Shown: positions 2,665 through 36,348 of the stretch, piece by piece
Position numbering within the stretch: position 1 is the stretch's first letter
Layout: each line of letters starts with the position of its first letter
Sequence record: OZ035820.1
Reading direction: 5' to 3' (one strand)
DNA length: 40,708 nt
Origin: Przondovirus NAN33P2
Program-made: the position numbers and the translations under genes
Notes under the pieces: model-generated
Databases searched by the model: none
What the model was told of the DNA's origin: nothing
Seen by the model: only the letters and a program-made list of their open reading frames with translations

Positions 2665-2687
2665 AATTAGGTAGCACTATAGGGAGA
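2665..2687 (+). promoter_or_regulatory. Phage RNAP promoter (phiOR-like)
   Basis: AATTAGGTAGCACTATAGGGAGA, 23-mer collinear with the T7 promoter -17..+6; position after gene 19 matches T7 phiOR. Confidence 0.75.
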
Positions 2688-2828
2688 GACCCCTAAAGAC
2701 TTACTATAAGACTACTTAAAGTTTCATTCATATAGTTATGCACTATAGGTCTCCTCTATGAGAGAGGGTAGTAATGATAATATCACCCTCTAACTATAAG
2801 ACACTAAGAGCTAACACAAGGAGGACCT

Positions 2829-2978
2829 ATGCGCTTACTGTTAACCTTACTGCGCCATAGGACTACTTGGCGGTTTCTGCTGGTACTTGCTGGTGCCCTT
2901 GGGGCTTCACTGGTTACTCAGCAACAACTCGGTGGACTGGAGACTCTCGTGTGCTCTCTACTCGCTTGTAGCGATTAG
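2829..2978 (+). CDS. Small hypothetical protein at the gene 19.5 position
   Basis: 49-aa ORF (MRLLLTLLRH...LACSD) preceded by AAGGAGG; same size and position as T7 gene 19.5; sequence homology not verified. Confidence 0.35.
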   Translation: MRLLLTLLRHRTTWRFLLVLAGALGASLVTQQQLGGLETLVCSLLACSD

Positions 2979-3161
2979 GGTCTTCCTTACGCGCTAGGGA
3001 TTCCGTAGTGATGCTTATCAGCATACACCACTCCATCCCTCTACAGTCAATACTTAAAGTTAACCTTAGGTGATTCGCTGGTCTACCTACGGGTCTATGC
3101 AATGACCTGAGGACTACCTGAGGTTACCTTTAAGAATTTTACATAAAGTTCTGAGTGTACA

Positions 3162-3576: not shown

Positions 3577-3599
3577 AATTAGGTATCACTATAAGGAGA
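3577..3599 (+). promoter_or_regulatory. Phage RNAP promoter variant (phiOL-like)
   Basis: AATTAGGTATCACTATAAGGAGA; carries the same TATAAGGAGA variant as recalled T7 phiOL and lies just upstream of the host-type early promoters. Confidence 0.55.
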
Positions 3600-3679
3600 C
3601 ACTCTAAGTATTACTACGAGACCATTACCAATAAGAACACTATCACTATAGGTCTAACTAAAAGTTTTAACTTTAAGTG

Positions 3680-3715
3680 TTGACATTCAGATTCCGTTAT
3701 GAGACATTAGCAACC
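3680..3715 (+). promoter_or_regulatory. Candidate host sigma70 early promoter (A1-like)
   Basis: Perfect -35 TTGACA at 3680-3685; -10 is poor (GACATT or ACATTA at 17-18 bp spacing); position about 86 bp after phiOL parallels T7 A1. Confidence 0.3.
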
Positions 3716-3812
3716 GTTGAGAGACACAACGTCACCAACGACCAGACAATACCACGAGTTATCTGGTTAGACTGAGGGTCTCAAGTAGCTATCAACCGGC
3801 ATACGAAAATGG

Positions 3813-3841
3813 TTGACTCAACGATGAACAAGTAGTAAGAT
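3813..3841 (+). promoter_or_regulatory. Host sigma70 early promoter (A2/A3-like)
   Basis: TTGACT (3813-3818), 17-bp spacer, TAAGAT (3836-3841); resembles recalled T7 A2 (-10 TAAGAT). Confidence 0.55.
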
Positions 3842-4009
3842 GCACCACAGATTCACCGCTCTTTAACAATATGGATTAGTCAAAGCTGATATGTACACCA
3901 TGACATTAGTGTTTAACTAGTGGTTACATTCAGGTCTCTGGCAAGGTACGTCCTGTCACCCTGAGAGTAGCCACCTTGATAACCACTAATCAACTGAAGG
4001 ATATACATT

Positions 4010-4477
4010 ATGATTTTCACGAAAGAACCAGCCAACAAAGTATTCGTATTCGTTACCGCATACCGTGGCCATGAGTCGCAGGAAGTAAACGAGAAGATGC
4101 TCAAGGGTCTCATTAAGACCATTCGCACCTATCCGGGTGCATACGGCAACATTCGTGACGAGAACGTGCAAGGCTGCTTTAAGGAAGATGGTATGCCTGC
4201 GGCAACACAAGAACGCACGCTCAAGGTCGAATGTACTGAGAAGCAAGCCGCAGAGTTGACATGGCTGGCCTGTAAGACCTACTCGCAGGATGCCGTGCTG
4301 GTGGTGAACTCACAGACCCATACAGCAGCTCTGTGGTCTATTGAGGATGTAGGCGAGTATCCACAGGTCTACCCACGCTTGAAAGAGGTGTCCTTAGGTG
4401 GCACGCTGCAACAAGTGGATGCACCAAAGGGAGAATGCTATTCAGTCATCAACGGGCAGTACTGGGAGGTGGTGTAA
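4010..4477 (+). CDS. gp0.3: S-adenosylmethionine lyase / SAMase (anti-restriction), T3 gene 0.3 type
   Basis: 155 aa; first early gene; N-terminus MIFTKEPAN and internal QTHTA match recalled T3 SAMase; RBS GAAGGA. Confidence 0.7.
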   Translation: MIFTKEPANKVFVFVTAYRGHESQEVNEKMLKGLIKTIRTYPGAYGNIRDENVQGCFKEDGMPAATQERTLKVECTEKQAAELTWLACKTYSQDAVLVVNSQTHTAALWSIEDVGEYPQVYPRLKEVSLGGTLQQVDAPKGECYSVINGQYWEVV

Positions 4478-5161: not shown

Positions 5162-5196
5162 CACACTCACATCAACCACCATAAGGAAACAATCAA

Positions 5197-6279: not shown

Positions 6280-9000
6280 ATGAACGCATTAAACATTGCA
6301 CGTAATGACTTCTCAGAGATTGAACTGGCCGCTATCCCGTATAATATCCTCAGCGAGCACTATGGGGACAAGCTGGCACGCGAGCAGCTGGCACTGGAGC
6401 ATGAAGCGTACGAGCTGGGCGAGCAGCGTTTCCTGAAGATGCTGGAACGTCAGGTGAAAGCTGGTGAGTTCGCTGACAACGTGGCTGCTAAGCCGCTGGT
6501 CCTAACGTTGCACCCGCAGCTGACCAAGCGTATTGACGACTGGAAGGAGGAGCAGGCAAACGCACGCGGTAAGAAACCTCGCGCATACTACCCGATTACG
6601 CACGGTGTGTCCTCAGAGTTGGCCCTCAGTATGGGCGCTGAGGTTCTCAAAGAGAAGCGTGGAGTGTCCAGTGAGGCAATCGCACTGCTCACCATTAAGG
6701 TGGTCTTAGGGACGCTCACAGACGCCGCAAAGGCCACAATCCAGCAGGTGTCCTCACAGTTAGGCAAGGCCCTTGAGGATGAGGCCCGCTTCGGTCGTAT
6801 CCGTGAGCAGGAAGCCGCATACTTCAAGAAGAACGTAGCGGACCAGCTGGACAAGCGCGTAGGCCACGTGTACAAGAAGGCTTTCATGCAGGTCGTCGAG
6901 GCCGATATGATATCCAAAGGGATGCTGGGCGGGGACAACTGGGCGAGCTGGAAAACTGACGAGCAGATGCACGTAGGGACCAAGCTGCTGGAGCTACTTA
7001 TCGAGGGAACTGGTCTGGTGGAAATGACCAAGAACAAGATGGCCGATGGCTCCGATGATGTGACCAGTATGCAGATGGTCCAGCTGGCTCCGGCCTTTGT
7101 GGAACTCCTGAGCAAGCGAGCGGGCGCACTCGCAGGTATCAGCCCGATGCACCAACCGTGCGTAGTCCCTCCGAAACCTTGGGTGGAGACCGTAGGCGGT
7201 GGCTACTGGTCAGTCGGTCGTCGCCCGCTGGCACTGGTTCGTACCCACTCCAAGAAGGCACTGCGCCGCTACGCAGACGTGCACATGCCAGAGGTATACA
7301 AAGCGGTAAACCTCGCGCAAAACACACCGTGGAAGGTGAACAAGAAGGTGTTGGCGGTAGTCAATGAGATTGTTAACTGGAAGCACTGCCCGGTGGCTGA
7401 CGTTCCAGCGATTGAACGTGAAGAGTTACCACCGCGCCCGGACGATATCGACACCAACGAGGTGGCACGTAAGGCATGGCGCAAGGAGGCCGCGGCGGTC
7501 TACCGTAAGGACAAGGCCCGCCAGTCTCGCCGTTTGTCGATGGAGTTCATGGTCGCACAGGCCAACAAGTTCGCTAACCACAAGGCCATCTGGTTCCCGT
7601 ATAACATGGACTGGCGCGGGCGTGTGTACGCTGTGAGCATGTTCAACCCGCAGGGTAACGACATGACCAAGGGTATGCTGACGCTGGCCAAGGGTAAGCC
7701 GATTGGTCTAGACGGGTTCTACTGGCTGAAGATTCATGGTGCAAACTGTGCAGGCGTCGACAAGGTTCCCTTCCCTGAGCGCATCAAGTTCATCGAAGAG
7801 AACGAGGGCAACATTCTGGCGAGTGCAGCTGACCCGCTGAATAACACTTGGTGGACACAGCAAGATTCACCGTTCTGCTTCTTAGCGTTCTGCTTCGAGT
7901 ACGCAGGCGTTAAACACCACGGCCTGAATTACAACTGCTCGCTGCCTCTGGCGTTCGATGGATCATGCTCTGGGATTCAGCACTTCAGCGCAATGCTCCG
8001 CGATTCCATCGGTGGCCGTGCGGTAAACCTGCTGCCATCTGATACCGTGCAGGATATCTACAAGATTGTGGCCGATAAGGTCAACGAGGTGCTCCAGCAG
8101 CACGCTGTCAACGGGTCTCAAACGGTGGTCGAGCAGATTGCCGACAAGGAGACTGGTGAGTTCCGCGAGAAGGTAACGCTGGGTGAGTCCGTACTTGCTG
8201 CGCAGTGGCTGCAATATGGTGTTACCCGCAAGGTGACTAAGCGTTCGGTAATGACGTTGGCGTATGGTTCCAAAGAGTTTGGCTTCCGCCAGCAAGTTCT
8301 TGAGGATACCATTCAGCCAGCTATTGACAACGGCGAGGGCTTGATGTTTACGCACCCTAACCAAGCGGCTGGCTATATGGCTAAGCTGATTTGGGACGCT
8401 GTGACCGTGACCGTAGTGGCCGCTGTCGAGGCAATGAATTGGCTGAAGTCTGCCGCTAAACTGCTGGCCGCTGAAGTCAAGGACAAGAAGACCAAAGAGG
8501 TGCTCCGTAAGCGCTGCGCAATCCACTGGGTAACACCAGACGGCTTCCCGGTGTGGCAGGAATACCACAAGCGAGATCAAGCGCGCCTGAAGCTGACGTT
8601 CTTGGGTCAGGCCAACGTGTTCATGACGTACAACAAAGGGGAAGCCAAAGAGATTGACGCACATAAGCAGGAGTCAGGAATCGCTCCTAACTTTGTGCAC
8701 TCACAGGATGGTAGTCACCTGCGCATGACCGTAGTGCACGCCAACGAGGTCTACGGGATTGACTCCTTCGCGCTCATTCATGACTCCTTCGGGACCATTC
8801 CAGCAGACGCTGGGAATCTCTTTAAGGCAGTCCGTGAGACGATGGTCAAGACCTACGAGGATAACGATGTAATCGCTGACTTTTATGACCAGTTCGCTGA
8901 CCAGCTGCACGAGTCTCAACTGGACAAAATGCCTGCTGTCCCGGCCAAAGGTGACCTGAATCTGCGCGATATCTTAGAGTCTGACTTCGCGTTCGCCTAA
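6280..9000 (+). CDS. gp1: Single-subunit DNA-dependent RNA polymerase
   Basis: 906 aa; collinear with recalled T7 RNAP (MN..NIA.NDFS.IELAAIP, RGKKP, PFCFLAFCFEYAG, HDSFGT, final FAFA); about 20 extra residues in the N-terminal domain; length equals my recollection for K11 RNAP. Confidence 0.95.
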   Translation: MNALNIARNDFSEIELAAIPYNILSEHYGDKLAREQLALEHEAYELGEQRFLKMLERQVKAGEFADNVAAKPLVLTLHPQLTKRIDDWKEEQANARGKKPRAYYPITHGVSSELALSMGAEVLKEKRGVSSEAIALLTIKVVLGTLTDAAKATIQQVSSQLGKALEDEARFGRIREQEAAYFKKNVADQLDKRVGHVYKKAFMQVVEADMISKGMLGGDNWASWKTDEQMHVGTKLLELLIEGTGLVEMTKNKMADGSDDVTSMQMVQLAPAFVELLSKRAGALAGISPMHQPCVVPPKPWVETVGGGYWSVGRRPLALVRTHSKKALRRYADVHMPEVYKAVNLAQNTPWKVNKKVLAVVNEIVNWKHCPVADVPAIEREELPPRPDDIDTNEVARKAWRKEAAAVYRKDKARQSRRLSMEFMVAQANKFANHKAIWFPYNMDWRGRVYAVSMFNPQGNDMTKGMLTLAKGKPIGLDGFYWLKIHGANCAGVDKVPFPERIKFIEENEGNILASAADPLNNTWWTQQDSPFCFLAFCFEYAGVKHHGLNYNCSLPLAFDGSCSGIQHFSAMLRDSIGGRAVNLLPSDTVQDIYKIVADKVNEVLQQHAVNGSQTVVEQIADKETGEFREKVTLGESVLAAQWLQYGVTRKVTKRSVMTLAYGSKEFGFRQQVLEDTIQPAIDNGEGLMFTHPNQAAGYMAKLIWDAVTVTVVAAVEAMNWLKSAAKLLAAEVKDKKTKEVLRKRCAIHWVTPDGFPVWQEYHKRDQARLKLTFLGQANVFMTYNKGEAKEIDAHKQESGIAPNFVHSQDGSHLRMTVVHANEVYGIDSFALIHDSFGTIPADAGNLFKAVRETMVKTYEDNDVIADFYDQFADQLHESQLDKMPAVPAKGDLNLRDILESDFAFA

Positions 9001-9010: not shown

Positions 9011-9033
9011 AATTAGGTAGCACTATAGGGAAC
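9011..9033 (+). promoter_or_regulatory. Phage RNAP promoter (phi1.1A-like)
   Basis: AATTAGGTAGCACTATAGGGAAC immediately after gene 1. Confidence 0.7.
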
Positions 9034-9098: not shown

Positions 9099-9662
9099 AT
9101 GACTTACTCAATCGTTGTAACCATCTTGTTAATCGTATTAATCATCCTGTTAGTAAGGGCCGTCACACGACTCGGTGCCTGCGAGTACGCCCTTGAGAAG
9201 CAAGCCAAGAGCAACGAGGAGTACACAGAAGGCTTGCACGATAAGGTCTACCGCCTGTTTGCCGATAAGGTATCACTCAATAAGCAGGTGCGGTGGTTAG
9301 AGAGCGAGCTTGAACACGAGAAGCAGAAGGTACGCGATGTGAACGAACTACGGGAACACCAGCGGGGCCGCATGAAGTTCCTCCGCAAGTCCCTCAAGGA
9401 AGCACAAGATGAGCTGATGATGGTCTCAGGCCTGATTCACGTTAAGTTCACCGCTGTGTTACCAGACGGTACCCACTCCAAGACGCTCTTTAAGCTAGGG
9501 CTTGGCCCGTGTGGTCTCCACGTTAAGTCCCTCCGATGGACAGAGCTGGAGGACCGCTACCTGATAGACCAGCTGTGCACCAATGGCGAGCGTAAGCAGT
9601 TCGTCTACTACAAGAGCGAAGTAGTAGGACGCATCGAGTTCCGTCACGGTAAGTCTGAATAA
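9099..9662 (+). CDS. Hypothetical membrane-anchored coiled-coil protein (no T7 counterpart recognised)
   Basis: 187-aa ORF with AAGAGG RBS; N-terminal TM helix (IVVTILLIVLIILLV), central charged coiled-coil-like region, about 70-aa C-terminal domain; sits between gene 1 and gene 1.1 and is bracketed by two phage promoters. Confidence 0.6.
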   Translation: MTYSIVVTILLIVLIILLVRAVTRLGACEYALEKQAKSNEEYTEGLHDKVYRLFADKVSLNKQVRWLESELEHEKQKVRDVNELREHQRGRMKFLRKSLKEAQDELMMVSGLIHVKFTAVLPDGTHSKTLFKLGLGPCGLHVKSLRWTELEDRYLIDQLCTNGERKQFVYYKSEVVGRIEFRHGKSE

Positions 9663-9680
9663 GGTAGCACTATAGGAACA
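9658..9680 (+). promoter_or_regulatory. Phage RNAP promoter variant (phi1.1B-like)
   Basis: AATAAGGTAGCACTATAGGAACA; weaker variant overlapping the stop of the 187-aa ORF. Confidence 0.5.
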
Positions 9681-9681: not shown

Positions 9682-9712
9682 ACTCAAGGTCATCGTTCGG
9701 TGGCCTTCATGA
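9682..9712 (+). promoter_or_regulatory. RNase III-type processing hairpin (R1.1-like)
   Basis: ACTCAAGGTCATCGTTCGGTGGCCTTCATGA; member of the conserved hairpin family. Confidence 0.5.
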
Positions 9713-9928: not shown

Positions 9929-10186
9929 ATGGCTACTGAAAAAAGATGGCTTTTCGATGGGAGCACCTCACAATGGTCTCGTTTAGGGGCAGCGGAGAGT
10001 AGACTACTGGATACGACAGGCCTGCACGTGGTCATGCTTGACGACCCATTCACTAACACAGTGCTGTTCAACGTGTTCGAGCAACGCGGGTCACTTCTAA
10101 TAAGTAAGCGGTTCAGCCACTGGTCGATTGACTCAGCGTCAGACTGGCTGGCAAAACTCACAGCTGACTACTCAAGTTGGAAATGA
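9929..10186 (+). CDS. gp1.2: Gene 1.2 protein (inhibitor of host dGTP triphosphohydrolase)
   Basis: 85 aa, same length as T7 gp1.2 and ending ...SWK (T7 ...DWK); position between 1.1 and ligase. Confidence 0.65.
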   Translation: MATEKRWLFDGSTSQWSRLGAAESRLLDTTGLHVVMLDDPFTNTVLFNVFEQRGSLLISKRFSHWSIDSASDWLAKLTADYSSWK

Positions 10187-10207
10187 TTAGGTAGCACTAT
10201 AGGCAGA
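10185..10207 (+). promoter_or_regulatory. Phage RNAP promoter (phi1.3-like)
   Basis: GATTAGGTAGCACTATAGGCAGA upstream of the ligase gene. Confidence 0.6.
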
Positions 10208-10240
10208 CTCAAGGTCATCGGATTCCGGTGGCCTTTATGA
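10207..10240 (+). promoter_or_regulatory. RNase III-type processing hairpin (R1.3-like)
   Basis: ACTCAAGGTCATCGGATTCCGGTGGCCTTTATGA with a 9-bp stem (GGTCATCGG / CCGGTGGCC). Confidence 0.55.
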
Positions 10241-10286: not shown

Positions 10287-11393
10287 ATGATGAACATTAA
10301 TACCAACCCCTTTAAGGCTGTATCCTACGTACGCTCTGCTATCGAGAAGGCGCTGGAGACTTCCGGTTACCTCATCGCAGACACTAAGCACGATGGTGTG
10401 CGCGGGAACATTTGCGTAGACAACACGGCTAACTCAGCGTGGCTCAGCAGGGTCTCCAAGACCATTCCGGCCCTTGAGCACCTCAACGGTTTCGACCAGC
10501 GCTGGCAGAAGTTACTGAAAGATGACCGCTGGATTTTCCCGGACGGCTTTATGCTTGATGGAGAACTCATGGTCAAAGGTGTTGACTTCAACACCGGGTC
10601 TGGCCTGCTGCGCACCAAGTGGCTGAAGAAATATAACATGGAGTACCACAATGTCCCAGTAACACCAGACATGCTGAAGCCACGCAAGGTTGGTGTTGCT
10701 AAACGTGTTCGTACTGAGTTTAGACTATCTACCGAACATCTACGTGTTGTCCTCTACGACATCATTCCGCTTGACATTATCGAGTCCGGTGATGACTACA
10801 ACGTGATGACCCTCCTGCGCCTTGAGCACGTCAAGGTAGCCTTACCAATCCTGCAAGACCACTTCCCGGAAGTCGAGTGGTGCCTCTCGGAGTCCCATGA
10901 AGTTTACGACATGGACGAACTCGATGCGCTGTACCGACAGAAACGCGAAGAAGGTCACGAAGGTCTGGTGGTTAAGGACCCTCGCGGTATCTATAAGCGT
11001 GGTAAGAAGTCCGGCTGGTGGAAGCTGAAGCCAGAGAATGAGGCTGATGGTATCGTTGTGGGACTCAACTGGGGAACTCCCGGTCTCGCCAACGAGGGCA
11101 AAGTGATTGGCTTCGAGGTCCTCCTTGAGTCCGGTCGCGTGGTGTCCGCCAACAACATCTCTCAGGCACTTATTAGGGAGTTTACAAAGAAAGTCGGTGG
11201 GGCGAACTTTGAAGACTACGGTGACTGGTGCATGACCGACCCGTCCGATATAGAAAGACTGTGCAAGGTCAACCCATACCACGGCTGGGCGTGCCAAATC
11301 AAGTACATGGAGGAAACTCCAGACGGCTCTCTGCGTCACCCATCTTTCGACAAATGGCGCGGTACCGAGGCGGACCCTACCGTTAAGATGTAA
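10287..11393 (+). CDS. gp1.3: ATP-dependent DNA ligase
   Basis: 368 aa; adenylation motif KHDGVRG; long identical stretches to recalled T7 ligase (NICVDNTANS, WLSRVSKTIPALEHLNGFD, YMEETPDGSLRHPSF). Confidence 0.95.
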   Translation: MMNINTNPFKAVSYVRSAIEKALETSGYLIADTKHDGVRGNICVDNTANSAWLSRVSKTIPALEHLNGFDQRWQKLLKDDRWIFPDGFMLDGELMVKGVDFNTGSGLLRTKWLKKYNMEYHNVPVTPDMLKPRKVGVAKRVRTEFRLSTEHLRVVLYDIIPLDIIESGDDYNVMTLLRLEHVKVALPILQDHFPEVEWCLSESHEVYDMDELDALYRQKREEGHEGLVVKDPRGIYKRGKKSGWWKLKPENEADGIVVGLNWGTPGLANEGKVIGFEVLLESGRVVSANNISQALIREFTKKVGGANFEDYGDWCMTDPSDIERLCKVNPYHGWACQIKYMEETPDGSLRHPSFDKWRGTEADPTVKM

Positions 11394-11414
11394 TTAGGTA
11401 GCACTACAGGAGAC
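11392..11414 (+). promoter_or_regulatory. Phage RNAP promoter variant (phi1.5-like)
   Basis: AATTAGGTAGCACTACAGGAGAC (ACTACAGG variant) overlapping the ligase stop. Confidence 0.55.
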
Positions 11415-12564: not shown

Positions 12565-12587
12565 CATTAGGTAGCACTATAGGGACA
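12565..12587 (+). promoter_or_regulatory. Phage RNAP promoter (phi2.5-like)
   Basis: CATTAGGTAGCACTATAGGGACA followed by a short hairpin (GGGACACAGGTTGTCCC). Confidence 0.65.
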
Positions 12588-14232: not shown

Positions 14233-14255
14233 CATTAAGTAGCACTACAGGGAGA
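14233..14255 (+). promoter_or_regulatory. Phage RNAP promoter variant (phi3.8-like)
   Basis: CATTAAGTAGCACTACAGGGAGA after gene 3.5. Confidence 0.55.
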
Positions 14256-16907: not shown

Positions 16908-17360
16908 ATGAAAGTTTGTTCGAAATGTGGCAATGGTAAGCCGCTCTCTGAGTTCGGTAAAGCATCCCGCATGAAGGACGGCTTGAGGACTTGGTGTAAA
17001 GAGTGTGTGAGGAGGGACAACAACGATCGGTACCACAAACACGATGCGGAGCGAAGGGCTGAGCACAGGTGGCGGTCACGTAAGTCGCAGATAAAGAAGT
17101 ACGGTATCACAGTGGAGCAGTACGAGGCCATGTGGGAATCGCAGGGTGGGAGGTGTAAGATATGTGGAGACGCTGTAGCGGTGCACTCAGAAAACCGTCA
17201 CGAAGTCGCGTGTATTGACCATTGTCACGAGACCTTAAAGGTTAGAGGTCTTTTGTGCTGGCACTGTAACATCGGGCTTGGTAAGTTCTTTGATAACACA
17301 GAGCGCCTTAAGGCTGCTATAGAATATCTGGAGGTACACAGTGTTAGTGATGGACATTGA
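16908..17360 (+). CDS. HNH endonuclease, Endonuclease VII-like
   Basis: 150 aa; N-terminal CxxC...CxxC zinc knuckle (CSKCGNGKP...CKEC) and C-terminal HNH core (CIDHCHETLKVRGLLCWHCNIGLG); GAGGAG RBS; 3' end overlaps the gene 5 start. Confidence 0.7.
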   Translation: MKVCSKCGNGKPLSEFGKASRMKDGLRTWCKECVRRDNNDRYHKHDAERRAEHRWRSRKSQIKKYGITVEQYEAMWESQGGRCKICGDAVAVHSENRHEVACIDHCHETLKVRGLLCWHCNIGLGKFFDNTERLKAAIEYLEVHSVSDGH

Positions 17361-19455
17361 AGCAAACAACCTTTTAGAGAACGCTACGCAGTTTCACTGT
17401 GGCGTGCTTTATGATTACGCAACAGGTGACTACACATCTTATAGACCTTGGGACTTCTCTGCGTACTTGGACGCCATGGAGGATGAAGTCGCCCGTGGAG
17501 GCCTTATCGTGGGGCACAACATCACCAAGTATGATGCCCCAGTGTTAACCAAGCTGGCCAAGCTCCAGTTAAACCGAGAGTTCCACCTGCCGCGTGAGAA
17601 CGTAGTGGACACGTTGGTGCTCAGTCGTTTGCTGTTTGCGAACATTAAGGACACCGACATGACCCTGCTGCGCTCCGGGAAGTTACCCGGTAAGCGCTTC
17701 GGGTCTCACGCTCTGGAGGCGTGGGGTTACCGCTTAGGCGAGATGAAGGGTGAGTACAAGGACGACTTCAAGAAGCTCCTTGAGGAACAGGGAGAGGATT
17801 ACGTCGATGGTGCTGAGTGGATTAGCTTCAACGAGCCGATGATGGCGTATAACGTTCAGGACGTTGTGGTGACCAAGGCTCTCCTTGAGAAGCTGCTGAG
17901 CGACAAGCACTACTTCCCAGCTGGTATAGACTTCACGGATGTCGGCGAGACAACCTTCTGGTCAGAGTCCTGCGAGGCCGTCTGGTTGGAACACCGAGCC
18001 GCTTGGTTACTCGCTAAGCAGGAGCGTAACGGATTCCCGTTCAACACCAAGGCCATCGAGGAACTCTACGTTGAACTCGCTGGTCGTCGTTCTGAACTCC
18101 TTCAGACACTCACCGACACTTTCGGAACTTGGTATCAGCCTAAGGGTGGCACTGAGTTATTCCTGCACCCGCGAACTGGGAAGCCTCTGGGGAAATACCC
18201 GCGAGTGAAGTACCCGAAGCAGGGTGCCATCTACAAGAAACCCAAGAACAAAGCTCAGCGTGAGGGTCGTGAACCATGCGAGCTGGACACTCGGGATTAC
18301 GTAGAGGGCGCTCCATATACACCAGTAGAGCACGTTGTGTTCAACCCTAGTAGCCGAGACCACATTGCGCTCAAGCTGAAGGAAGCCGGATGGGTACCGA
18401 CAGAGTTCACCGATAAAGGTGCACCTAAGGTAGACGACGAGGTCCTTGAGCATGTGCGTGTGGAAGACCCTGAGAAGCAGCGCTGCATTGACCTCATCAA
18501 AGAGTACCTGATGATACAGAAGCGTATCGGTCAGGCGGCTGAGGGCGACAAAGCGTGGCTACGTTACGTTCAAGAGGATGGTAAAATCCATGGTTCAGTC
18601 AATCCTAATGGTGCCGTTACGGGCCGAGCGACTCACAGCTTCCCGAACCTCGGACAAGTGCCGGGTGTTCGAAGTCCTTACGGCGAGCCTTGCAGGGCTG
18701 CTTTTGGTGCTGAGCATCACCTTGACGGCCTCACTGGTTTACCTTGGGTACAAGCTGGTATCGACGCCTCCGGTCTGGAACTGCGGTGTCTCGCACACTT
18801 CATGTCCAAGTACGACGGGGGAGCTTATGCAGACGTTATTCTTAACGGGGACATCCACACGGTAAACCAGCAGGCCGCTGAGTTGCCGACTCGTGACAAC
18901 GCGAAGACCTTTATCTACGGATTCCTTTACGGAGCAGGCGACGAGAAGATTGGACAAATCGTCGGAGCAGGTAAGGAACGCGGAAAGGAACTCAAGAAGA
19001 AATTCCTTGAGAACACCCCAGCAATCGCAGCGTTGCGTGAAGGAATCCAGCAGACCCTCGTCGAGTCATCCAGATGGGTCGCAGGAGAGCAGAAGGTCAA
19101 GTGGAAACGACGCTGGATTAAGGGACTGGATGGAAGAAAGGTACACGTTCGGTCACCACATGCCGCGCTCAACACGTTGCTTCAATCAGCGGGTGCGCTC
19201 ATTTGTAAGCTGTGGATTGTCGAGACTGAAGAGTTGCTCCTCAAGGCTGGCTTGAAGCACGGCTGGGATGGTGACTTTGCGTACATGGCGTGGGTCCACG
19301 ATGAAATCCAAGTGGCCTGCCGGACACCTGAGATTGCACAGCAGGTGATTGACATTGCGCAACAAGCTATGCGCAACGTTGGGGAACACTTCAAGTTCCG
19401 TTGCCGTCTGGATACAGAAGGTAAGATGGGTCCGAACTGGGCCGTATGTCACTAA
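17341..19455 (+). CDS. gp5: DNA polymerase (family A) with 3'-5' exonuclease
   Basis: 704 aa, same length as T7 gp5 and collinear with it (DIEANNLLE, FHCGV.YDY, thioredoxin-binding region, C-terminal KMGPNWA.CH); start is GTG 17341, 6 nt after GGAGG. Confidence 0.95.
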   Translation: MLVMDIEANNLLENATQFHCGVLYDYATGDYTSYRPWDFSAYLDAMEDEVARGGLIVGHNITKYDAPVLTKLAKLQLNREFHLPRENVVDTLVLSRLLFANIKDTDMTLLRSGKLPGKRFGSHALEAWGYRLGEMKGEYKDDFKKLLEEQGEDYVDGAEWISFNEPMMAYNVQDVVVTKALLEKLLSDKHYFPAGIDFTDVGETTFWSESCEAVWLEHRAAWLLAKQERNGFPFNTKAIEELYVELAGRRSELLQTLTDTFGTWYQPKGGTELFLHPRTGKPLGKYPRVKYPKQGAIYKKPKNKAQREGREPCELDTRDYVEGAPYTPVEHVVFNPSSRDHIALKLKEAGWVPTEFTDKGAPKVDDEVLEHVRVEDPEKQRCIDLIKEYLMIQKRIGQAAEGDKAWLRYVQEDGKIHGSVNPNGAVTGRATHSFPNLGQVPGVRSPYGEPCRAAFGAEHHLDGLTGLPWVQAGIDASGLELRCLAHFMSKYDGGAYADVILNGDIHTVNQQAAELPTRDNAKTFIYGFLYGAGDEKIGQIVGAGKERGKELKKKFLENTPAIAALREGIQQTLVESSRWVAGEQKVKWKRRWIKGLDGRKVHVRSPHAALNTLLQSAGALICKLWIVETEELLLKAGLKHGWDGDFAYMAWVHDEIQVACRTPEIAQQVIDIAQQAMRNVGEHFKFRCRLDTEGKMGPNWAVCH

Positions 19456-19473
19456 TAATACAGGAGATTTATC

Positions 19474-19761: not shown

Positions 19762-19967
19762 GCGAGTACCTCAAAGTTCTGGCGGCCCTCAAGGGCTGCC
19801 CTAAGTCCTTCCAGTCGAACTACGTGCGTAACAACGCTGCGTTAGTCGCTGAGGCTGCGAGCCGTGGTCACATTTCGTGCCTGACCATGAGTGGTCGTAA
19901 TGGTGGCGCTTGGGAAATTACCAGTGCCGGAGTGAAATTCCTTAAGACCCATGGAGGTTGCCTGTGA
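19758..19967 (+). CDS. gp5.7: Gene 5.7 protein
   Basis: 69 aa; close to recalled T7 gp5.7 (MS.YLKVL...CPK.FQSNYVRNNA.LVAEAASRGHISCLT.SGRNGGAWEIT). Confidence 0.8.
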   Translation: MSEYLKVLAALKGCPKSFQSNYVRNNAALVAEAASRGHISCLTMSGRNGGAWEITSAGVKFLKTHGGCL

Positions 19968-20964: not shown

Positions 20965-21012
20965 ACTCATGGGCACTAATTAGGTAGCACTATAGGGAAG
21001 TGCCCATTATGA
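20965..21012 (+). promoter_or_regulatory. RNase III-type hairpin (R6.5-like) enclosing a promoter
   Basis: 9-bp stem ATGGGCACT / AGTGCCCAT flanked by the family's ACTCA and TTATGA, with the promoter in the loop. Confidence 0.5.
20978..21000 (+). promoter_or_regulatory. Phage RNAP promoter (phi6.5-like)
   Basis: AATTAGGTAGCACTATAGGGAAG. Confidence 0.7.
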
Positions 21013-21802: not shown

Positions 21803-23410
21803 ATGGCAGAAGTTAAACTTGAAGGCTTCGCAGAGGAGGGAGCCAAGGCGGTATACGACCGTCTGAAGAACGACCGACAGCCTTACGAGACACGAGCAGA
21901 GTCCTGTGCGCAGTACACGATTCCCTCACTGTTCCCTAAGGACTCCGATAACGCATCAACCGATTACACGACTCCGTGGCAATCCGTAGGTGCTCGCGGG
22001 CTGAACAACCTAGCGTCCAAGCTGATGCTGGCCCTGTTCCCGATGCAATCATGGATGAAGTTGACCATTAGCGAATACGAAGCGAAGAACCTTCTGGGTG
22101 ACGCCGAGGGTCTCGCTAAGGTCGATGAGGGCCTCTCAATGGTAGAGCGCATCATCATGAACTACATCGAGTCCAACAGTTATCGAGTGACTCTCTTTGA
22201 GTGCTTGAAGCAACTGTGTGTGGCTGGCAACGCGCTGCTTTACTTACCGGAGCCTGAGGGTTATACCCCGATGAAGCTCTATCGGCTGAACTCGTATGTG
22301 GTCCAGCGAGACGCTTTCGGTAACGTGCTCCAGATTGTCACACTCGACAAGATTGCGTTCAATGCGCTCCCTGAAGACGTTCGTGGTCAGGTGGAAGCGG
22401 CTCAAGGTGAGCAGAAGGAAGACGCTGAGATTGACGTCTACACCCACGTGTACCTGAACGAAGCCGGGGATGGCTACTCGAAGTACGAAGAGGTTGCCGA
22501 AGAGGTAGTTCCGGGCAGTGAGGCCGAGTACCCGCTCGAAGAGTGTCCGTACATTCCGGTCCGCATGGTCCGCATCGACGGTGAATCCTATGGTCGTTCC
22601 TACGTGGAAGAGTATCTGGGTGACCTCAAGTCCCTAGAGAACCTCCAAGAGTCCATCGTGAAGATGGCCATGATTACCGCTAAGGTTATCGGTCTGGTAG
22701 ACCCGGCAGGTATCACTCAGGTTCGCCGACTCACGGCAGCACAGTCTGGTGCGTTCGTACCGGGCCGTAAGCAGGACATTGAGTTCCTCCAACTGGAGAA
22801 GTCCGGTGACTTTACCGTAGCGAAGAACGTAAGCGACACCATTGAGGCGCGCCTCTCGTATGCCTTTATGCTCAACAGTGCGGTACAACGTACAGGCGAG
22901 CGAGTCACAGCCGAAGAGATTCGGTACGTGGCGTCAGAGCTGGAAGATACCCTTGGCGGTGTCTACTCGATTCTCTCGCAGGAACTCCAGCTGCCTCTGG
23001 TAAGAGTGCTCTTGAAGCAACTACAAGCCACGCAGCAAATCCCGGAGTTACCTAAAGAGGCCGTCGAGCCAACTATCAGCACTGGCCTTGAGGCTATCGG
23101 ACGTGGGCAGGACCTTGACAAGCTGGAGCGATGCATTGCCGCATGGTCAGCTCTTAAGGCCCTCGAAGGCGATGATGACCTCAACTTGGCTAACCTCAAG
23201 TTACGCATCGCTAACGCTATCGGACTCGACACTGCTGGTATGCTTCTCACTCAGGAGCAGAAGAATGCCCTTATGGCACAGCAAGGCGCTCAGATTGCTA
23301 CACAGCAAGGGGCCGCAGCGTTGGGTCAGGGGGTGGCCGCACAGGCTACTGCAAGTCCTGAAGCGATGGCCGCTGCGGCTGATTCAGTCGGTATGCAACC
23401 GGGCATGTAA
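21803..23410 (+). CDS. gp8: Portal (head-to-tail connector) protein
   Basis: 535 aa (T7 gp8 is 536 aa); position before scaffold and capsid genes. Confidence 0.9.
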   Translation: MAEVKLEGFAEEGAKAVYDRLKNDRQPYETRAESCAQYTIPSLFPKDSDNASTDYTTPWQSVGARGLNNLASKLMLALFPMQSWMKLTISEYEAKNLLGDAEGLAKVDEGLSMVERIIMNYIESNSYRVTLFECLKQLCVAGNALLYLPEPEGYTPMKLYRLNSYVVQRDAFGNVLQIVTLDKIAFNALPEDVRGQVEAAQGEQKEDAEIDVYTHVYLNEAGDGYSKYEEVAEEVVPGSEAEYPLEECPYIPVRMVRIDGESYGRSYVEEYLGDLKSLENLQESIVKMAMITAKVIGLVDPAGITQVRRLTAAQSGAFVPGRKQDIEFLQLEKSGDFTVAKNVSDTIEARLSYAFMLNSAVQRTGERVTAEEIRYVASELEDTLGGVYSILSQELQLPLVRVLLKQLQATQQIPELPKEAVEPTISTGLEAIGRGQDLDKLERCIAAWSALKALEGDDDLNLANLKLRIANAIGLDTAGMLLTQEQKNALMAQQGAQIATQQGAAALGQGVAAQATASPEAMAAAADSVGMQPGM

Positions 23411-23431
23411 TTAGGTAGCACTATAGGGAGA
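23409..23431 (+). promoter_or_regulatory. Phage RNAP promoter (phi9-like)
   Basis: AATTAGGTAGCACTATAGGGAGA, perfect consensus copy. Confidence 0.8.
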
Positions 23432-23524: not shown

Positions 23525-24484
23525 ATGGCTGGCGAATCTAACGCAGACGTATACGCATCCTTCGGTGTCAACAGTGCTGTACTGACTGGTAGTACACCTG
23601 AGGAGCACCAAGAAAACATGTTGGCTCTTGATGTTGCTGCCCGTGATGGCGATGATGCAATCGAGCTGAACACCAACAGTGATGACCCGTATGGCTCCGA
23701 TGTGGACCCGTTCGGTGAACCTGAAGAGGGCCGTATGCAGGTCCGCATCTCCGCTGATGGTTCAGACGAAGAGTCTACCGAAGGTGAAGAGGGTTCTGAA
23801 GAAGAACAGCACGGCGACGAAGAGAGTCAGCCGGAGGAAGTAACCGACGATGGTGAACCTGAAGAGTTCAAACCTATTGGTGAAACTCCGGCTGACATCA
23901 ACGAAGCCTCTCAGCAGCTGGAAGAACACGAAGCTGGCTTTAACGACATGGTTGCTACTGCAATCGAACGCGGTCTCTCACAGGATGCTGTGACCCGTAT
24001 TCAGCAGGAGTACCAGAACGAAGACAGTCTGTCCGAGGAGTCTTACCGCGAGTTGGCCGAGGCTGGCTACAGTAAGGCGTTCGTCGATGCGTACATTCGT
24101 GGTCAGGAAGCTCTGGTCAACCAGTACGTCGAGAAAGTGATGGACTTCGTGGGTGGCCGCGAGCGGTTCCAGCAGGTCTACGGCCACATGAAGACCAATA
24201 ACCCTGAGGGTGCCGAGGCGCTCATCAAGGCTTTTGAGTCTCGTGATGTAGCCACCATGAAGACGATTCTGAACCTAGCGGGACAGTCTCGTGATAAAAC
24301 CTTTGGTAAGAAAGCTGAGCGCTCTATTGCCAAGCGTGCAACCCCAGCGAAACCTGTGGCCCGCAAGGCTGTAGGCTTCGAGTCTCAAGCTGAGATGATT
24401 AAGGCGATGTCCGACCAGCGCTACCGCACCGACTCTAAGTACCGTCGTGAAGTGGAACAGAAGGTTATCGACTCTAAGTTTTAA
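23525..24484 (+). CDS. gp9: Capsid assembly (scaffolding) protein
   Basis: 319 aa from ATG after TAAGGAG; highly acidic; position between portal and capsid. The six-frame ORF begins upstream at 23474 inside the promoter region. Confidence 0.85.
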   Translation: MAGESNADVYASFGVNSAVLTGSTPEEHQENMLALDVAARDGDDAIELNTNSDDPYGSDVDPFGEPEEGRMQVRISADGSDEESTEGEEGSEEEQHGDEESQPEEVTDDGEPEEFKPIGETPADINEASQQLEEHEAGFNDMVATAIERGLSQDAVTRIQQEYQNEDSLSEESYRELAEAGYSKAFVDAYIRGQEALVNQYVEKVMDFVGGRERFQQVYGHMKTNNPEGAEALIKAFESRDVATMKTILNLAGQSRDKTFGKKAERSIAKRATPAKPVARKAVGFESQAEMIKAMSDQRYRTDSKYRREVEQKVIDSKF

Positions 24485-24505
24485 TTAGGTAGCACTATAG
24501 GGAGA
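24483..24505 (+). promoter_or_regulatory. Phage RNAP promoter (phi10-like)
   Basis: AATTAGGTAGCACTATAGGGAGA followed by hairpin CCCCAGC...GCTGGGG. Confidence 0.8.
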
Positions 24506-25969: not shown

Positions 25970-25981
25970 AACTAAGCCAAA

Positions 25982-26019
25982 CCCCTTGGGGACCACTCAC
26001 GGTCTCTGAGGGGTTTTTT
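25982..26019 (+). terminator. Phage RNAP terminator (Tphi-like)
   Basis: CCCCTTGGGGACC...GGTCTCTGAGGGG hairpin followed by TTTTTT; closely resembles recalled T7 Tphi. Confidence 0.8.
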
Positions 26020-26036
26020 CGTTAGGAGCTTACATT

Positions 26037-29039: not shown

Positions 29040-29062
29040 AATTAGGTAGCACTATAGGGAGA
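29040..29062 (+). promoter_or_regulatory. Phage RNAP promoter (phi13-like)
   Basis: AATTAGGTAGCACTATAGGGAGA. Confidence 0.8.
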
Positions 29063-29497: not shown

Positions 29498-29499
29498 CT

Positions 29500-32361: not shown

Positions 32362-35300
32362 ATGAGCTACGACAAGTCCAGACCTAGTGACTACGACGGT
32401 ATCTTCCAGAAGGCAGCAGACTCTCACGGAGTTAGCTATGACCTGCTGCGTAAACTGTCCTTCAACGAATCATCCTTCAACCCTAAGGCCGTCTCTAAGA
32501 CTGGACCTAAGGGCATCATGCAGTTCACCCGCAACACGGCCCGAGCGATGGGACTTAACGTTACCGATGGTGACGACGATGGGCGCTACAACCCTGAGTT
32601 AGCCATTGACGCTGGCGCTAAGCTGCTTGCGAGCCTCGTTAAGAAGTACAATGGGGATGAGCTTAAAGCGGCCCTAGCGTACAACCAAGGGGAAGGCCCA
32701 GCGGGTGCTCCCCAGCTTCAAGCGTACGACAAGGGAGACTTCGGGTCTATCTCGGAGGAAGGTCGTAACTACATGCGCAAGCTGCTGGACGTGGCCAAGA
32801 GTCCGAACTCAGGAGCACTGGAGGCGTTCGGGGGCATAACCCCAAAGGGTAAAGGGATTCCCGCAGAGGATGCCTTCAAGGGCATCTCCAAGGCTGGCAA
32901 GGTAGGTACCGAACTGCCGGAGTCCCATGGGTTCGACGTTGAAGGTGTAGCGCAGGAAGCGCCCAACACACCATACGCTAAGGACTTCTGGGAGAAGACC
33001 GGGACGACTCTCGATGAGTATAACGCTCGGTCAACCTTCTTCGGTTTCGGTGATGCTGCTGAGGCTCAGATTCAGAACTCAACACTAGGTGTTGCCTTCC
33101 GTGCTGCGCGTGCTGACGATGGGTACGATGTGTTCAAGGACACAATGACCCCGACTCGCTGGAACTCTTACGTCCCCTCCAAGGAAGACTTACAGAAGCT
33201 GCGAGACTCCGGGTTGCCGCCAAGTTACTACGGTGTGGTGACTGGTGGTGACGGTGAGAACTGGGATGCGCTCATCAAGCTGGCCAAGGATAACTTCGAG
33301 GCTGACCAAAGGGCCGCTGAGGCTGGTACTGGGGCGAAACTAGCTGCTGGTATCGTTGGTGCTGGTGTAGACCCACTCAGCTATGTACCTCTGGTCGGTG
33401 TGACCGGGAAGGGACTCAAGGTGGTCAATAAGGCCTTGCGAGTAGGTGTGCAGGCTGGAGCACTCAGTGTTGCCTCTGAAGGTATCCGTACGTCAGTCGC
33501 TGGTGGTGAAGCTCACTACGCTGATGCGGCACTTGGTGGGTTACTGTTCGGTGCTGGTATGTCAGCCCTTAGTGACGCGGTGGCCGCTGGTATCCGCAAG
33601 GCTCGTGGAGTAGACTCCGTGAATGAGTTTGCTGGACCAGCACTCCGTATGGAAGCGCGAGAGACTGCCATCAACACTGGTGGTCACGACACCTCGACAC
33701 TACCTCCAGAGAACTTCTCGTTCGAGCAGGACCACAGAGGTGTTCCGTTTGCCGACCACCCGACCGAAGAGGGAGCAGTGGTTCTTGCCAATGGTTCCAT
33801 CCTGAGTGACACCAACCCGCTCAACCCAAGGACTCAACGTGACTTCGCAGAGATTGACCCAGAGCGTGCAGCTCCCGGTATCAAACTCGGTGGGTTCACT
33901 GAGATTGGTCTGAAGACCTTAGGGTCCAAGGATGCTGGCGTTCGTGCAATCGCTCAGGACCTCGTCCGTTCTCCTACAGGTATGCAATCAGGGTCTAGTG
34001 GTAAGTTCGGTGCGACCGCTTCGGACATCCATGAGCGTCTCCATTCGACTGACCAGAGGATGTATAACCAACTGTATGACGCTGTTGACCGCGCTATGAA
34101 GGACCCAGAGTTCTCCGTAGGCGAGCAGAAGATGTCACGCAGAGCCATCCGTCAGGAAGTCTACAAGCGTGCCGCCTTGGCGATTGAACGCCCAGAGTTA
34201 CAGGCTGATTTGACCAAAGGTGAACGTGAGGTGATGGACCTGCTGAAAGAGCACTTCGACACCAAGCGTGAACTGATGGAACAGCCGGGTATCTTCGGTA
34301 ACGCTAACGCCGTGAGCATCTTCCCCGGTAGTCGCCACAAAGGTACCTACGTGCCTAACGTGTACGACAGGGCTGCTAAGCAGTTAATGACGCAGAAGCT
34401 GGGCGGACCTGAAGGACTCCAACAGGCAATCGCTCAGAGCTGGCTCACCAGTTACCGAGTGCGGCCTGAGGTCAAGGCACGTGTCGACGAGTACCTGATG
34501 GAACTTAACGGCTACAAGTCGGTAGACCAAGTGACACCTGAGGTGGTCCAGAAGCACGCCATGGATAAGGCGTACGGTATCAGTCACACAGAGGACTTCA
34601 CAGCGTCCAGCATCATTGACGACAACATCACAGGTCTGGTCGGTATCGAGAACAACTCGTTCCTTGAAGCCCGTAACATGTTCGACAGTGACCTCCCGGT
34701 TACCTTACCTGACGGGTCAACCTTCAGCGTCAACGACCTGCGGGACTTTGACATGGCACGGATTATCCCAGCGTACGACCGTCGAGTTAACGGTGATATC
34801 TCCATCATGGGAGGTAGCGGTAAGACCACTAAGCAGCTCAAGGACGAAATCATGGCGTTAGACAAGCGGGCCGAACGCAAGGGACAACTGAAGGGCGAAG
34901 TGGAAGCACTGAAGGATACCGTTAAGATTCTCACTGGTCGTGCTCGCCGTAACAACGATACAGCCTTTGAGACTGCTATGCGCTCCCTGAATGACCTAGC
35001 GTTCTTCGCTAAGAACTTCTACATGGGTCCGCAGAACCTCACAGAAATCTCTGGGATGTTGGCTAAGGGTAACGTCAAGGCAATGCTTCATGGTATCCCA
35101 ACGTTGCGGGACCTAGCGACTAGAACCTCTCCGGTGTCCGGTAGTGAACTCCGTGAACTCCATGGGGCGCTGTTCGGTAAGGAACTCGACCAGTTAATCC
35201 GTCCGGGGCGTGAGGACATCGTACAGCGAATCCGCGAGGCGTCCGATACCAGTGGAGCCATGGCTTCTGTCATTGGTACCATTAAGTTCGGTACTCAGGA

Positions 35301-36327
35301 GCTGTCTGCTCGTTCTCCTTGGACAAAGATGCTGAATGGTACGGCTAACTACATTCTGGACACTGCCCGTCAGGGTGTGCTCGGTGATGTGGCTGGTGCG
35401 GCCCTAGGCGGCAAGGGTTCAAAGTTTGGCAAAGAGAACTTCCTCAAAGCTGCCTCTATCAGTCCTGAGCAGTGGAAGGGCATCAAGCAACTCTTTGTAG
35501 ACCACGCGACTCGTGACACTAACGGTCAGTTCACCATCAAGGACAAGAAGGCTTTCAGTCAGGACCCGAGAGCGATGGACCTGTGGCGTCTTGCCGATAA
35601 GGTTGCCGACGAGACCATGCTGCGACCCCACAAGGTATCTCTTCAGGATTCCAAGGCGTACGGTGCTGGTGTCAAGATGGCTATGCAGTTCAAGAACTTC
35701 ACCATCAAGTCGCTCAACGCTAAGTTCATTAGGTCCTTCTATGAGGGCTACAAGAACAACCGCGCTATCGACATGGCGTTGACCCACATCCTGTCACTTG
35801 GTATCGCCGGGACTTACTATGCGATGCAGGCCAACGTGAAGGCTTACGGTCTCCAAGAGTCTCAACGTAAGGACTACCTGAAGAAAGCCCTGAACCCGAC
35901 CATGCTGGCCTATGCAGCGTTGACTCGAAGTTCCCACACTGGTGCCCCGCTGTCCATCGTCTCGATGATTGCAGGTGCCGCTGGGTTCCAAGATGCAAAT
36001 ATGCTGCGCTCCACCATCTTACCTAAGGAGGAACAGTTCCAGAAGAAAGAAGGAGCATCCAAAGGTCGTGCCGAGTCGGGCAACCTTGTGGGTAACTTGG
36101 GGTCTCAGGTCCCGGCTCTTGGTTACGTAGGGAACGTCATTGCAACCGCTAAGAACGCCTACGGTGTTGTTACAGCACCCAATAAGCCGACTGAGCGCGA
36201 CTACATGACTGGCCTGATGAACTCCACTAAGGAGCTTGTGCCGAACGACCCGCTGACCCAACAGCTCATCATGAAAATCTATGAGGCTAACGGAGTAACC
36301 ATCAAACAGCAGCCTAAACCCAACTAA
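32362..36327 (+). CDS. gp16: Internal virion protein D with N-terminal lytic transglycosylase domain
   Basis: 1321 aa; N-terminal SLT-like domain (GVSYDLLRK, TGPKGIMQFT, ALAYNQGEG) and long collinear similarity to recalled T7 gp16. Confidence 0.95.
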   Translation: MSYDKSRPSDYDGIFQKAADSHGVSYDLLRKLSFNESSFNPKAVSKTGPKGIMQFTRNTARAMGLNVTDGDDDGRYNPELAIDAGAKLLASLVKKYNGDELKAALAYNQGEGPAGAPQLQAYDKGDFGSISEEGRNYMRKLLDVAKSPNSGALEAFGGITPKGKGIPAEDAFKGISKAGKVGTELPESHGFDVEGVAQEAPNTPYAKDFWEKTGTTLDEYNARSTFFGFGDAAEAQIQNSTLGVAFRAARADDGYDVFKDTMTPTRWNSYVPSKEDLQKLRDSGLPPSYYGVVTGGDGENWDALIKLAKDNFEADQRAAEAGTGAKLAAGIVGAGVDPLSYVPLVGVTGKGLKVVNKALRVGVQAGALSVASEGIRTSVAGGEAHYADAALGGLLFGAGMSALSDAVAAGIRKARGVDSVNEFAGPALRMEARETAINTGGHDTSTLPPENFSFEQDHRGVPFADHPTEEGAVVLANGSILSDTNPLNPRTQRDFAEIDPERAAPGIKLGGFTEIGLKTLGSKDAGVRAIAQDLVRSPTGMQSGSSGKFGATASDIHERLHSTDQRMYNQLYDAVDRAMKDPEFSVGEQKMSRRAIRQEVYKRAALAIERPELQADLTKGEREVMDLLKEHFDTKRELMEQPGIFGNANAVSIFPGSRHKGTYVPNVYDRAAKQLMTQKLGGPEGLQQAIAQSWLTSYRVRPEVKARVDEYLMELNGYKSVDQVTPEVVQKHAMDKAYGISHTEDFTASSIIDDNITGLVGIENNSFLEARNMFDSDLPVTLPDGSTFSVNDLRDFDMARIIPAYDRRVNGDISIMGGSGKTTKQLKDEIMALDKRAERKGQLKGEVEALKDTVKILTGRARRNNDTAFETAMRSLNDLAFFAKNFYMGPQNLTEISGMLAKGNVKAMLHGIPTLRDLATRTSPVSGSELRELHGALFGKELDQLIRPGREDIVQRIREASDTSGAMASVIGTIKFGTQELSARSPWTKMLNGTANYILDTARQGVLGDVAGAALGGKGSKFGKENFLKAASISPEQWKGIKQLFVDHATRDTNGQFTIKDKKAFSQDPRAMDLWRLADKVADETMLRPHKVSLQDSKAYGAGVKMAMQFKNFTIKSLNAKFIRSFYEGYKNNRAIDMALTHILSLGIAGTYYAMQANVKAYGLQESQRKDYLKKALNPTMLAYAALTRSSHTGAPLSIVSMIAGAAGFQDANMLRSTILPKEEQFQKKEGASKGRAESGNLVGNLGSQVPALGYVGNVIATAKNAYGVVTAPNKPTERDYMTGLMNSTKELVPNDPLTQQLIMKIYEANGVTIKQQPKPN

Positions 36328-36348
36328 TTAGGTAGCACTATAGGGAGA
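36326..36348 (+). promoter_or_regulatory. Phage RNAP promoter (phi17-like)
   Basis: AATTAGGTAGCACTATAGGGAGA. Confidence 0.8.

Follow-up and report, generated by a model that had tools for sequence, protein, structure and literature searches.

Genome layout and the repeated element

The window analyzed here is the whole of sequence record OZ035820.1 (40,708 nucleotides), a complete genome of Przondovirus NAN33P2, a K11/KP32-like podophage of Klebsiella. It carries a gene for a T7-type RNA polymerase (gene 1) and thirteen copies of a 23-bp element resembling the promoters of such enzymes. The assembly is circularly permuted: the holin gene (17.5) spans the junction between the end and the start of the window (40531-40708 plus 1-26), and the physical left end, TCTCACAGTTTA..., lies at 3162 and is the same end as in K11, Saitama, Whistle, and KpV289. 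A terminal repeat of ~180 bp (3162 to about 3341) is present in a single copy. Because of this permutation, site 3577 is the left-end promoter of the true linear genome and site 2665 its right-end promoter. Gene order is T7-like and the same as in K11. Over its first 25 kb, the window aligns to the best-matching Klebsiella phage records with an identity of 92.6-94.9% and a coverage of 91-95%, Przondovirus NAN33P6 being the nearest of them, and gene 1 shows 95-96% nucleotide identity to many Przondovirus Klebsiella phages. By gene order and nucleotide identity, the phage is a member of the genus Przondovirus.

The polymerase gene, its specificity loop and the thirteen putative promoters are as follows, with positions inside the elements counted from the predicted start at +1:

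2665..2687, + strand: phiOR, right-end promoter, downstream of gene 19; perfect copy of the 23-mer; orthologue of K11 phiOR, with near-identical flanks
3577..3599, + strand: phiOL, left-end promoter; TAT at -10 to -8, A at +1
6280..9000, + strand: gene 1, single-subunit T7-type RNA polymerase of 906 amino acids; Pfam RNA_pol 1.5e-111, RPOL_N 1.6e-20
8563..8658, + strand: specificity loop, codons 762-793 of gene 1, equivalent to T7 residues 739-770
9011..9033, + strand: phi1.05, directly after the polymerase gene; start GGGAAC, as in K11
9658..9680, + strand: phi1.1; its A at -14 belongs to the TAA stop of gene 1.05
10185..10207, + strand: phi1.3, before the ligase gene; its G at -17 falls within the TGA stop of gene 1.2; start GGCAGA
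11392..11414, + strand: phi1.6, which scores lowest (29.9 bits); has C at -2 and starts with GG in place of GGG
12565..12587, + strand: phi2.5, before the single-stranded DNA-binding protein gene; shares its C at -17 with K11 phi2.5
14233..14255, + strand: phi3.8/4, before gene 4; C at -17 and at -2, as in K11, and also A at -12
20978..21000, + strand: phi6.5, first late promoter; start GGGAAG, as in K11 phi6.5
23409..23431, + strand: phi9; perfect; overlaps the TAA stop of gene 8
24483..24505, + strand: phi10, before the major capsid gene; perfect
29040..29062, + strand: phi13; perfect
36326..36348, + strand: phi17, before the tail fibre/depolymerase gene; perfect; overlaps the TAA stop of gene 16

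Thirteen sharply bounded sites

The initial annotation had proposed thirteen copies of a phage promoter at these positions, and we recovered the same set. The core GGTAGCACTATAGG has ten exact occurrences in the window, all on the + strand and all at positions named there, and was matched in none of 100 dinucleotide-preserving shuffles; no site is expected by chance. The 23-mer AATTAGGTAGCACTATAGGGAGA matches twelve of the sites at up to three mismatches, missing only 11392, which reads AATTAGGTAGCACTACAGGAGAC and has five mismatches, mainly due to one missing G after +1. When a weight matrix derived from these thirteen sites was scored on both strands, they reached 29.9-41.3 bits and the next-best position on either strand 12.4 bits, a gap which indicates that there are exactly thirteen sites and that the set is sharply bounded. 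The window contains no site within three mismatches of the T7 promoter consensus, and none within one mismatch of the K11-type pattern AATTAGGRCMCACTATAGG.

Perfect copies of the 23-mer are found at 2665, 23409, 24483, 29040, and 36326, four of them with late genes downstream and the fifth (2665) being phiOR. The earlier statement that late copies are perfect therefore stands for 23409, 24483, 29040, and 36326, while the late-region copy at 20978 departs from it, with two mismatches at +5 and +6. The copies from phi1.05 through phi3.8 carry two to five mismatches to the consensus, and all substituted forms reported for the early region are indeed present (ACTACAGG at 11392 and 14233, TATAAGG at 3577, GGAACA at 9658). 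All thirteen sites share the orientation of the genes, and the distance from a site to the next gene start is 30-160 nt, with the exception of phiOL (416 nt). Six of them (9658, 10185, 11392, 23409, 24483, and 36326) share bases with the stop codon of the preceding gene, and it is this overlap that accounts for the A at -14 of phi1.1 (TAA) and the G at -17 of phi1.3 (TGA). Studiervirinae promoters are expected to be conserved elements of ~23 bp that combine a CACTATAG core with a G-rich start and occur in some 10-17 copies per genome, and the repeats of the window agree with this description.

Orthology with the promoters of K11

In K11, the annotation of the record lists thirteen phage promoters (phiOL, 1.05, 1.1, 1.3, 1.6, 2.5, one preceding gene 4, 6.5, 9, 10, 13, 17, and phiOR). 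When the window sites were aligned to them together with their flanks, the two sets corresponded one to one, in the same number and the same order. Even individual peculiarities of the K11 promoters are retained, such as the C at -17 of phi2.5 and phi3.8, the C at -2 of phi3.8, and the starts GGGAAC of phi1.05, GGCAGA of phi1.3, and GGGAAG of phi6.5. The flanks are conserved as well, those of phi1.05 differing from those of its K11 counterpart at two of 35 bases. K11, KP32, and IME321 belong to the same genus as the window phage, with a genome nucleotide identity of about 93-95% and thirteen promoter positions in common. Their consensus, AATTAGG[G/A]C[A/C]CACTATAGGGAGA, is identical to that of the window at -17 to -11 and at -7 to +6.

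The difference lies in the triplet at -10/-9/-8, which is switched at every site: the window has TAG (twelve sites) or TAT (phiOL), against GCA, ACA, or ACC in K11. The promoters of KP32 and HMGUkp3 have GCA, ACA, or ACC as well, and the arrangement typical of K11 and KP32 (G/A, C, and A/C at -10, -9, and -8) is absent from all thirteen window sites. The view that the phage has a specificity sequence of its own, closest to that of K11, is thus borne out and narrowed to three positions, and the K11 core given for that comparison in the initial annotation (GGGCACACTATAGG) agrees with the K11 record. The triplet is nearly uniform in the window (twelve TAG, one TAT) and degenerate in the K11 type, where GCA, ACA, and ACC occur within one genome, so that the K11-type enzyme may read -10 to -8 more loosely than its counterpart in TAG-type phages.

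Very probably, the thirteen repeats are middle and late promoters (classes II and III) recognized by the phage-encoded gene 1 polymerase. By analogy with T7-like phages we infer transcription from all of them. They could in principle be some other signal, such as an RNA-processing site, a replication or packaging signal, the binding site of another protein, or a small mobile repeat. We regard such a reading as highly improbable. Twenty of the 23 positions are common with promoters of K11, KP32, and IME321, which are experimentally active: transcription from K11-type promoters has been shown for the polymerases of KP32 (PMC13580328) and of IME321, called 'KpnP' (PMC12272871). The orthologous positions, the co-orientation with genes, and the location ahead of gene starts also speak against a non-promoter signal, as does an Rfam scan of the window, which returned no RNA family at gathering thresholds. 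Moreover, as described below, the sites co-vary with the DNA-reading loop of the polymerase and with nothing else in the genome.

The specificity loop of the gene 1 polymerase

The 906-residue polymerase named in the initial annotation is encoded by gene 1 at 6280-9000, with both Pfam domains expected of the family (RNA_pol and RPOL_N). We aligned it with those of T7, T3, K11, KP32, and SP6, using T7 numbering for residues. It is 75% identical to the T7 enzyme, and the specificity loop aligns gap-free. With respect to the K11 polymerase, only 18 of 906 residues differ (98% identity), and nine of these fall within the 32-residue loop corresponding to T7 residues 739-770 (hypergeometric p about 1e-9), the very segment that had been singled out beforehand and where such differences were expected. 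From K11 to the window they are R740H, Q742R, N743D, V750T, K758F, T763K, K765E, D766A, and S767K. Several of the codons concerned have no base in common with their K11 counterparts; in K758F, for instance, AAG is replaced by TTC, and in V750T GTC is replaced by ACG. Between the K11 and KP32 polymerases there are 11 residue differences, none of them in the loop. The window polymerase does not have a K11-type loop, as defined by K748, N756, and K758 in a K11 loop context, since residue 758 is F and eight more loop residues differ. The window polymerase shares R746, K748, and N756 with that of K11, as well as the AT-rich recognition loop, which fits the unchanged promoter bases at -7, at -12/-11, and at -17 to -13.

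According to Zhu et al. (2025; PMC11880802), the specificity of T7-like polymerases is determined mainly by residues 748, 756, and 758. In the T7 structure they read, with R746, positions -7 to -11. The coupling analysis given there links 748 with -11/-10, 756 with -10/-9, and 757/758 with -8. On this basis, K758F would account for the change at -8, an assignment that fits the data; which residue reads which base is something that we infer here from such analogies. Taken together, the TAG triplet and the variant loop with its nine substitutions indicate that the gene 1 polymerase and the TAG promoters form, at the sequence level, a specificity type distinct from the K11 type.

Outside the loop, codons 108-127 of gene 1 (6601-6660) encode a 20-residue N-terminal insertion that is characteristic of the polymerases of Klebsiella phages and is lacking in the N-terminal domain of the T7 enzyme. 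Three of the 18 differences from K11 are located inside this insertion, and a fourth, K107T, immediately precedes it. In the study of KP32, the N-terminal insertion is placed beside the AT-rich recognition loop (PMC13580328).

Co-variation of loop and promoter across genomes

The relationship between loop and triplet was followed in eight complete genomes, five with a TAG-type loop (the window, NAN33P6, KpV289, Whistle, and Saitama) and three with a K11 loop (K11, KP32, and HMGUkp3). A type-neutral pattern finds 12-13 sites in each of them, on the + strand only. All 63 sites of the five TAG-loop genomes have TAG or TAT, and all 39 sites of the three K11-loop genomes have GCA, ACA, or ACC. The loop type therefore predicts the triplet at 102 of 102 matched sites, and none of the eight genomes is mixed.

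An alignment of these genomes has 36,636 ungapped columns, of which 8,656 are variable and 138 are diagnostic, in the sense that no base is common to both types. Among these, 36 are the -10, -9, and -8 positions of the 12 alignable promoters, 23 belong to specificity-loop codons, 19 lie elsewhere in gene 1, one is the -17 position of phi1.3 (a stop-codon difference), and the remaining 59 are scattered over the rest of the genome. The triplet is thus diagnostic of type at 12 of 12 alignable promoters, against a single diagnostic column, at one promoter, for the other 20 positions. A broader sample was provided by 82 IMG/VR stretches in which the 23-mer occurs unaltered; with one exception, they come from contigs of ~40-41 kb. 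Their 187 promoter-like sites comprise 176 TAG, 10 TAT, and one TGG, with no K11-type triplet among them; as the stretches were chosen for carrying the motif, this sample tests only for mixed genomes.

At the nucleotide level, loops of different type are 72-74% identical and those of the same type 92-100%, whereas gene 1 outside the loop is 91-96% identical across all eight genomes and does not group by type; the loop thus has the look of a divergent cassette. When the window is compared with the seven other genomes in one-kb segments, its closest relative is a K11-type genome in nine of 45. In the gene 5.5 region (19224-19834) it is 94% identical to NAN33P6 and to the K11-type HMGUkp3, but 70-73% identical to all five other genomes, including the same-type KpV289, Whistle, and Saitama (72-73%), which indicates an allele common to both promoter types. 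Given this gene exchange between types, the match of loop and promoter is not simply a consequence of common descent of whole genomes. Selection against mismatched combinations of loop and promoter appears to be the likeliest explanation of the co-variation.

Probable discrimination between the two types

Granted that the sites are promoters, the triplet might still be no functional switch. Both polymerases would then read both types about equally, and the concordance of loop and triplet would reflect descent or a weak preference. This would agree with the variation of K11-type promoters at -10 (G/A) and -8 (A/C) within one genome, a sign that change is tolerated there, and with the identity of residues 748 and 756 in both types. 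We nonetheless consider it unlikely. Shared descent is contradicted by the mosaicism described above, both in gene 1 outside the loop and in the segments nearest to K11-type genomes, and most clearly by the allele at 19224-19834. Despite this exchange, not one matched site departs from the loop type, and the triplet is diagnostic at every alignable promoter. Loop identities are also bimodal, with none at 80-90% in either loop search, and Zhu et al. (2025; PMC11880802) describe substitutions at -8 to -11 as strongly discriminating in T7. Discrimination of the window polymerase against K11-type promoters (orthogonality) is accordingly probable, with indirect support from the co-variation of loop and promoter.

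Several points weigh against a distinct and discriminating TAG-type system. Residues 748 (K) and 756 (N) are unchanged, so that the three-residue code leaves the changes at -10/-9 unexplained. Other loop residues, for example V750T, or indirect effects must then contribute. V750T sits on the same hairpin strand as 746 and 748, but its role at -10/-9, like that of the other substitutions, is an assumption. The degeneracy of K11-type promoters at -10 and -8 suggests loose reading by at least one of the enzymes, making cross-recognition possible. The co-variation is drawn from eight complete genomes plus motif-selected IMG/VR fragments, and we found no transcription data for NAN33P2 or for any phage with the TAG promoter type.

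We see an even chance that Przondovirus comprises two mutually exclusive specificity types, the K11 type with K758 and the TAG type with F758, which exchange other genes and never mix promoters. If the enzymes truly discriminate, they would represent a natural minimal orthogonal pair, in which nine loop substitutions correspond to three base pairs between polymerases that are 98% identical. It would also be a solution to promoter recognition lying outside the current three-residue code, with an aromatic residue (F758) and with N756 kept while -10/-9 change. Non-cross-reacting pairs of phage polymerase and promoter serve as working tools in RNA manufacture and in genetic circuits, and nine loop changes on the characterised K11 polymerase background would then suffice for a new orthogonal channel. 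The dimorphism could, in addition, act as a barrier of transcriptional incompatibility between co-infecting relatives. A switch requires the polymerase and a dozen scattered promoters to change jointly, and both end states coexist in genomes that still recombine, which makes Przondovirus a natural system for how a specificity switch happens and what excludes hybrids.

Abundance of the TAG type and previous reports

A tblastn search with the window loop (39-residue query) returned 232 phage records at 90% identity or more, with K11 and KP32 at 76.9%. The corresponding search with the K11 loop returned 149 phage records at the same level. Neither search gave any record between 80 and 90% identity, that is, no intermediates. 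The pair is therefore not peculiar to NAN33P2: judged by deposited sequences, the TAG loop type is the majority type in this heavily sequenced genus. Import of the loop from another genus was also considered, and no donor was evident, the next loops outside both Klebsiella types being at most 67% identical (Dickeya phage Katbat).

The characterised Przondovirus polymerases that we found, those of K11, KP32 (PMC13580328), and IME321 (PMC12272871), all have K11-type promoters. A literature search with GGTAGCACTATAGG, TAGCACTATAG, and TTAGGTAGCAC retrieved no paper giving the TAG promoter, although this is a weak negative because the K11 23-mer was missed too. A search on the promoters of KpV289 found nothing, and the TAG type appears in none of three papers on new phage polymerases (PMC11475235, PMC13029058, and PMC13445594). 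A survey of T7-like phages is that of Zhu et al. (2025; PMC11880802), which reports 11,218 T7-like promoters mined from 840 genomes and 24 polymerase groups defined by residues 748/756/758, and describes the combination KNK plus GGGCC, the K11 class, as orthogonal when grafted into T7 polymerase. Our data fit the logic set out there, by which 748/756/758 co-vary with -12 to -8, and the window pair would be KNF plus GGTAG; neither 'KNF' nor 'GGTAG' occurs in the main text of that survey. As far as we found, the TAG variant is thus widespread in deposited genomes and apparently undescribed, and it stands in clean natural contrast to the K11 type.

Comparison with T7 and SP6

The system is an ordinary T7-like promoter system, in keeping with textbook T7 biology. 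T7 shares the 23-bp element from -17 to +6, the CACTATAGGGAGA core and start, promoters at the left and right ends, and a terminator after the capsid gene. In T7, too, consensus copies precede late genes and variants precede middle genes, and the perfect late and variant middle copies of the window fit this class III/class II pattern, in line with the graded strengths suggested in the initial annotation. The differences lie at -17 to -8, where the window has AATTAGGTAG and T7 has TAATACGACT, and at loop residues 748/756/758, which are K/N/F in the window and N/R/Q in T7.

SP6 belongs to another subfamily (Molineuxvirinae). Its polymerase is only 35% identical to that of T7 in our alignment and is visibly divergent from that of the window. 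For its promoter we assume the consensus ATTTAGGTGACACTATAGAAG; a single weak site was all that turned up in the first 8 kb of the SP6 record. Taken as such, this presumed consensus has GGT at -12 to -10 and the CACTATAG core in common with the window, and shows three mismatches over -17 to -1, the same count as K11. It would differ in having GA at -9/-8, where the window has AG, and in its start, GAAG versus GGGAGA.

Predicted course of transcription

Other transcription signals of the window are the following:

3680..3716, + strand: host (sigma-70) early promoter 1, aligned to the K11 'host RNAP promoter' at 581-617
3813..3849, + strand: host (sigma-70) early promoter 2, with TTGACT, a 17-base spacer, and TAAGAT; orthologue of K11 715-751
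25979..26022, + strand: Tphi-like terminator after gene 10, a G+C-rich hairpin of 16 pairs followed by a T run

Early promoter 1 has one mismatch over a 57-base alignment to its K11 counterpart, and both sigma-70 promoters are upstream of the early genes and gene 1. The putative terminator has a fold energy of -28.7 kcal/mol (z-score -4.4), and K11 has an annotated terminator at the same relative place. Between the physical left end and phiOL there are ~415 bp in the window and 479 bp in K11.

On the model of T7 and K11, the host RNA polymerase would start at the sigma-70 promoters (3680-3849) and transcribe the early genes, including gene 1. The phage polymerase would then bind each 23-bp element, its AT-rich recognition loop reading -17 to -13 (AATTA) and its specificity-loop hairpin reading the major groove at -12 to -7, before melting the TATA and starting at the G of GGGAGA. 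Most transcripts would end at the hairpin terminator after the capsid gene. Consensus copies would serve the late structural genes, and the variants, presumably weaker, those of DNA metabolism.

One further hairpin (CAAGGUCAUCG...GGUGGCCUU) is repeated after phi1.1 and phi1.3, at 9686-9707 and 10211-10235, in both cases within 35 nt of the predicted transcript start. It is conserved in K11, with fold z-scores of only about -2, and is placed where T3 annotates the RNase III site R1.1.

Other features of the genome

Gene 0.3, at 4010-4477 (+ strand), encodes an S-adenosylmethionine lyase (PF23780, 3.5e-37), which is T3-like and not of the T7 Ocr type. Between genes 4.5 and 5, an open reading frame of 150 amino acids at 16908-17360 (+ strand) contains an Endonuclease VII domain (PF02945, 2.9e-22). 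The 1-kb segment around it is just 74-78% identical to all seven relatives, and the endonuclease VII gene of Whistle is placed elsewhere, between genes 13 and 14. The open reading frame of the window may represent an endonuclease gene of a mobile or homing type.

Finally, two receptor-binding proteins are encoded at 36390-38921 and 38935-40521. The second has no Pfam match, and the first combines a T7 tail-fibre N-terminal domain with a weak pectate-lyase-like match. Past the first ~470 nt of the gene at 36390-38921, the window is 97-100% identical to NAN33P6 and its identity to the remaining six genomes does not exceed 58%, and from this pattern the receptor-binding region looks like a swapped capsule-specific depolymerase module.

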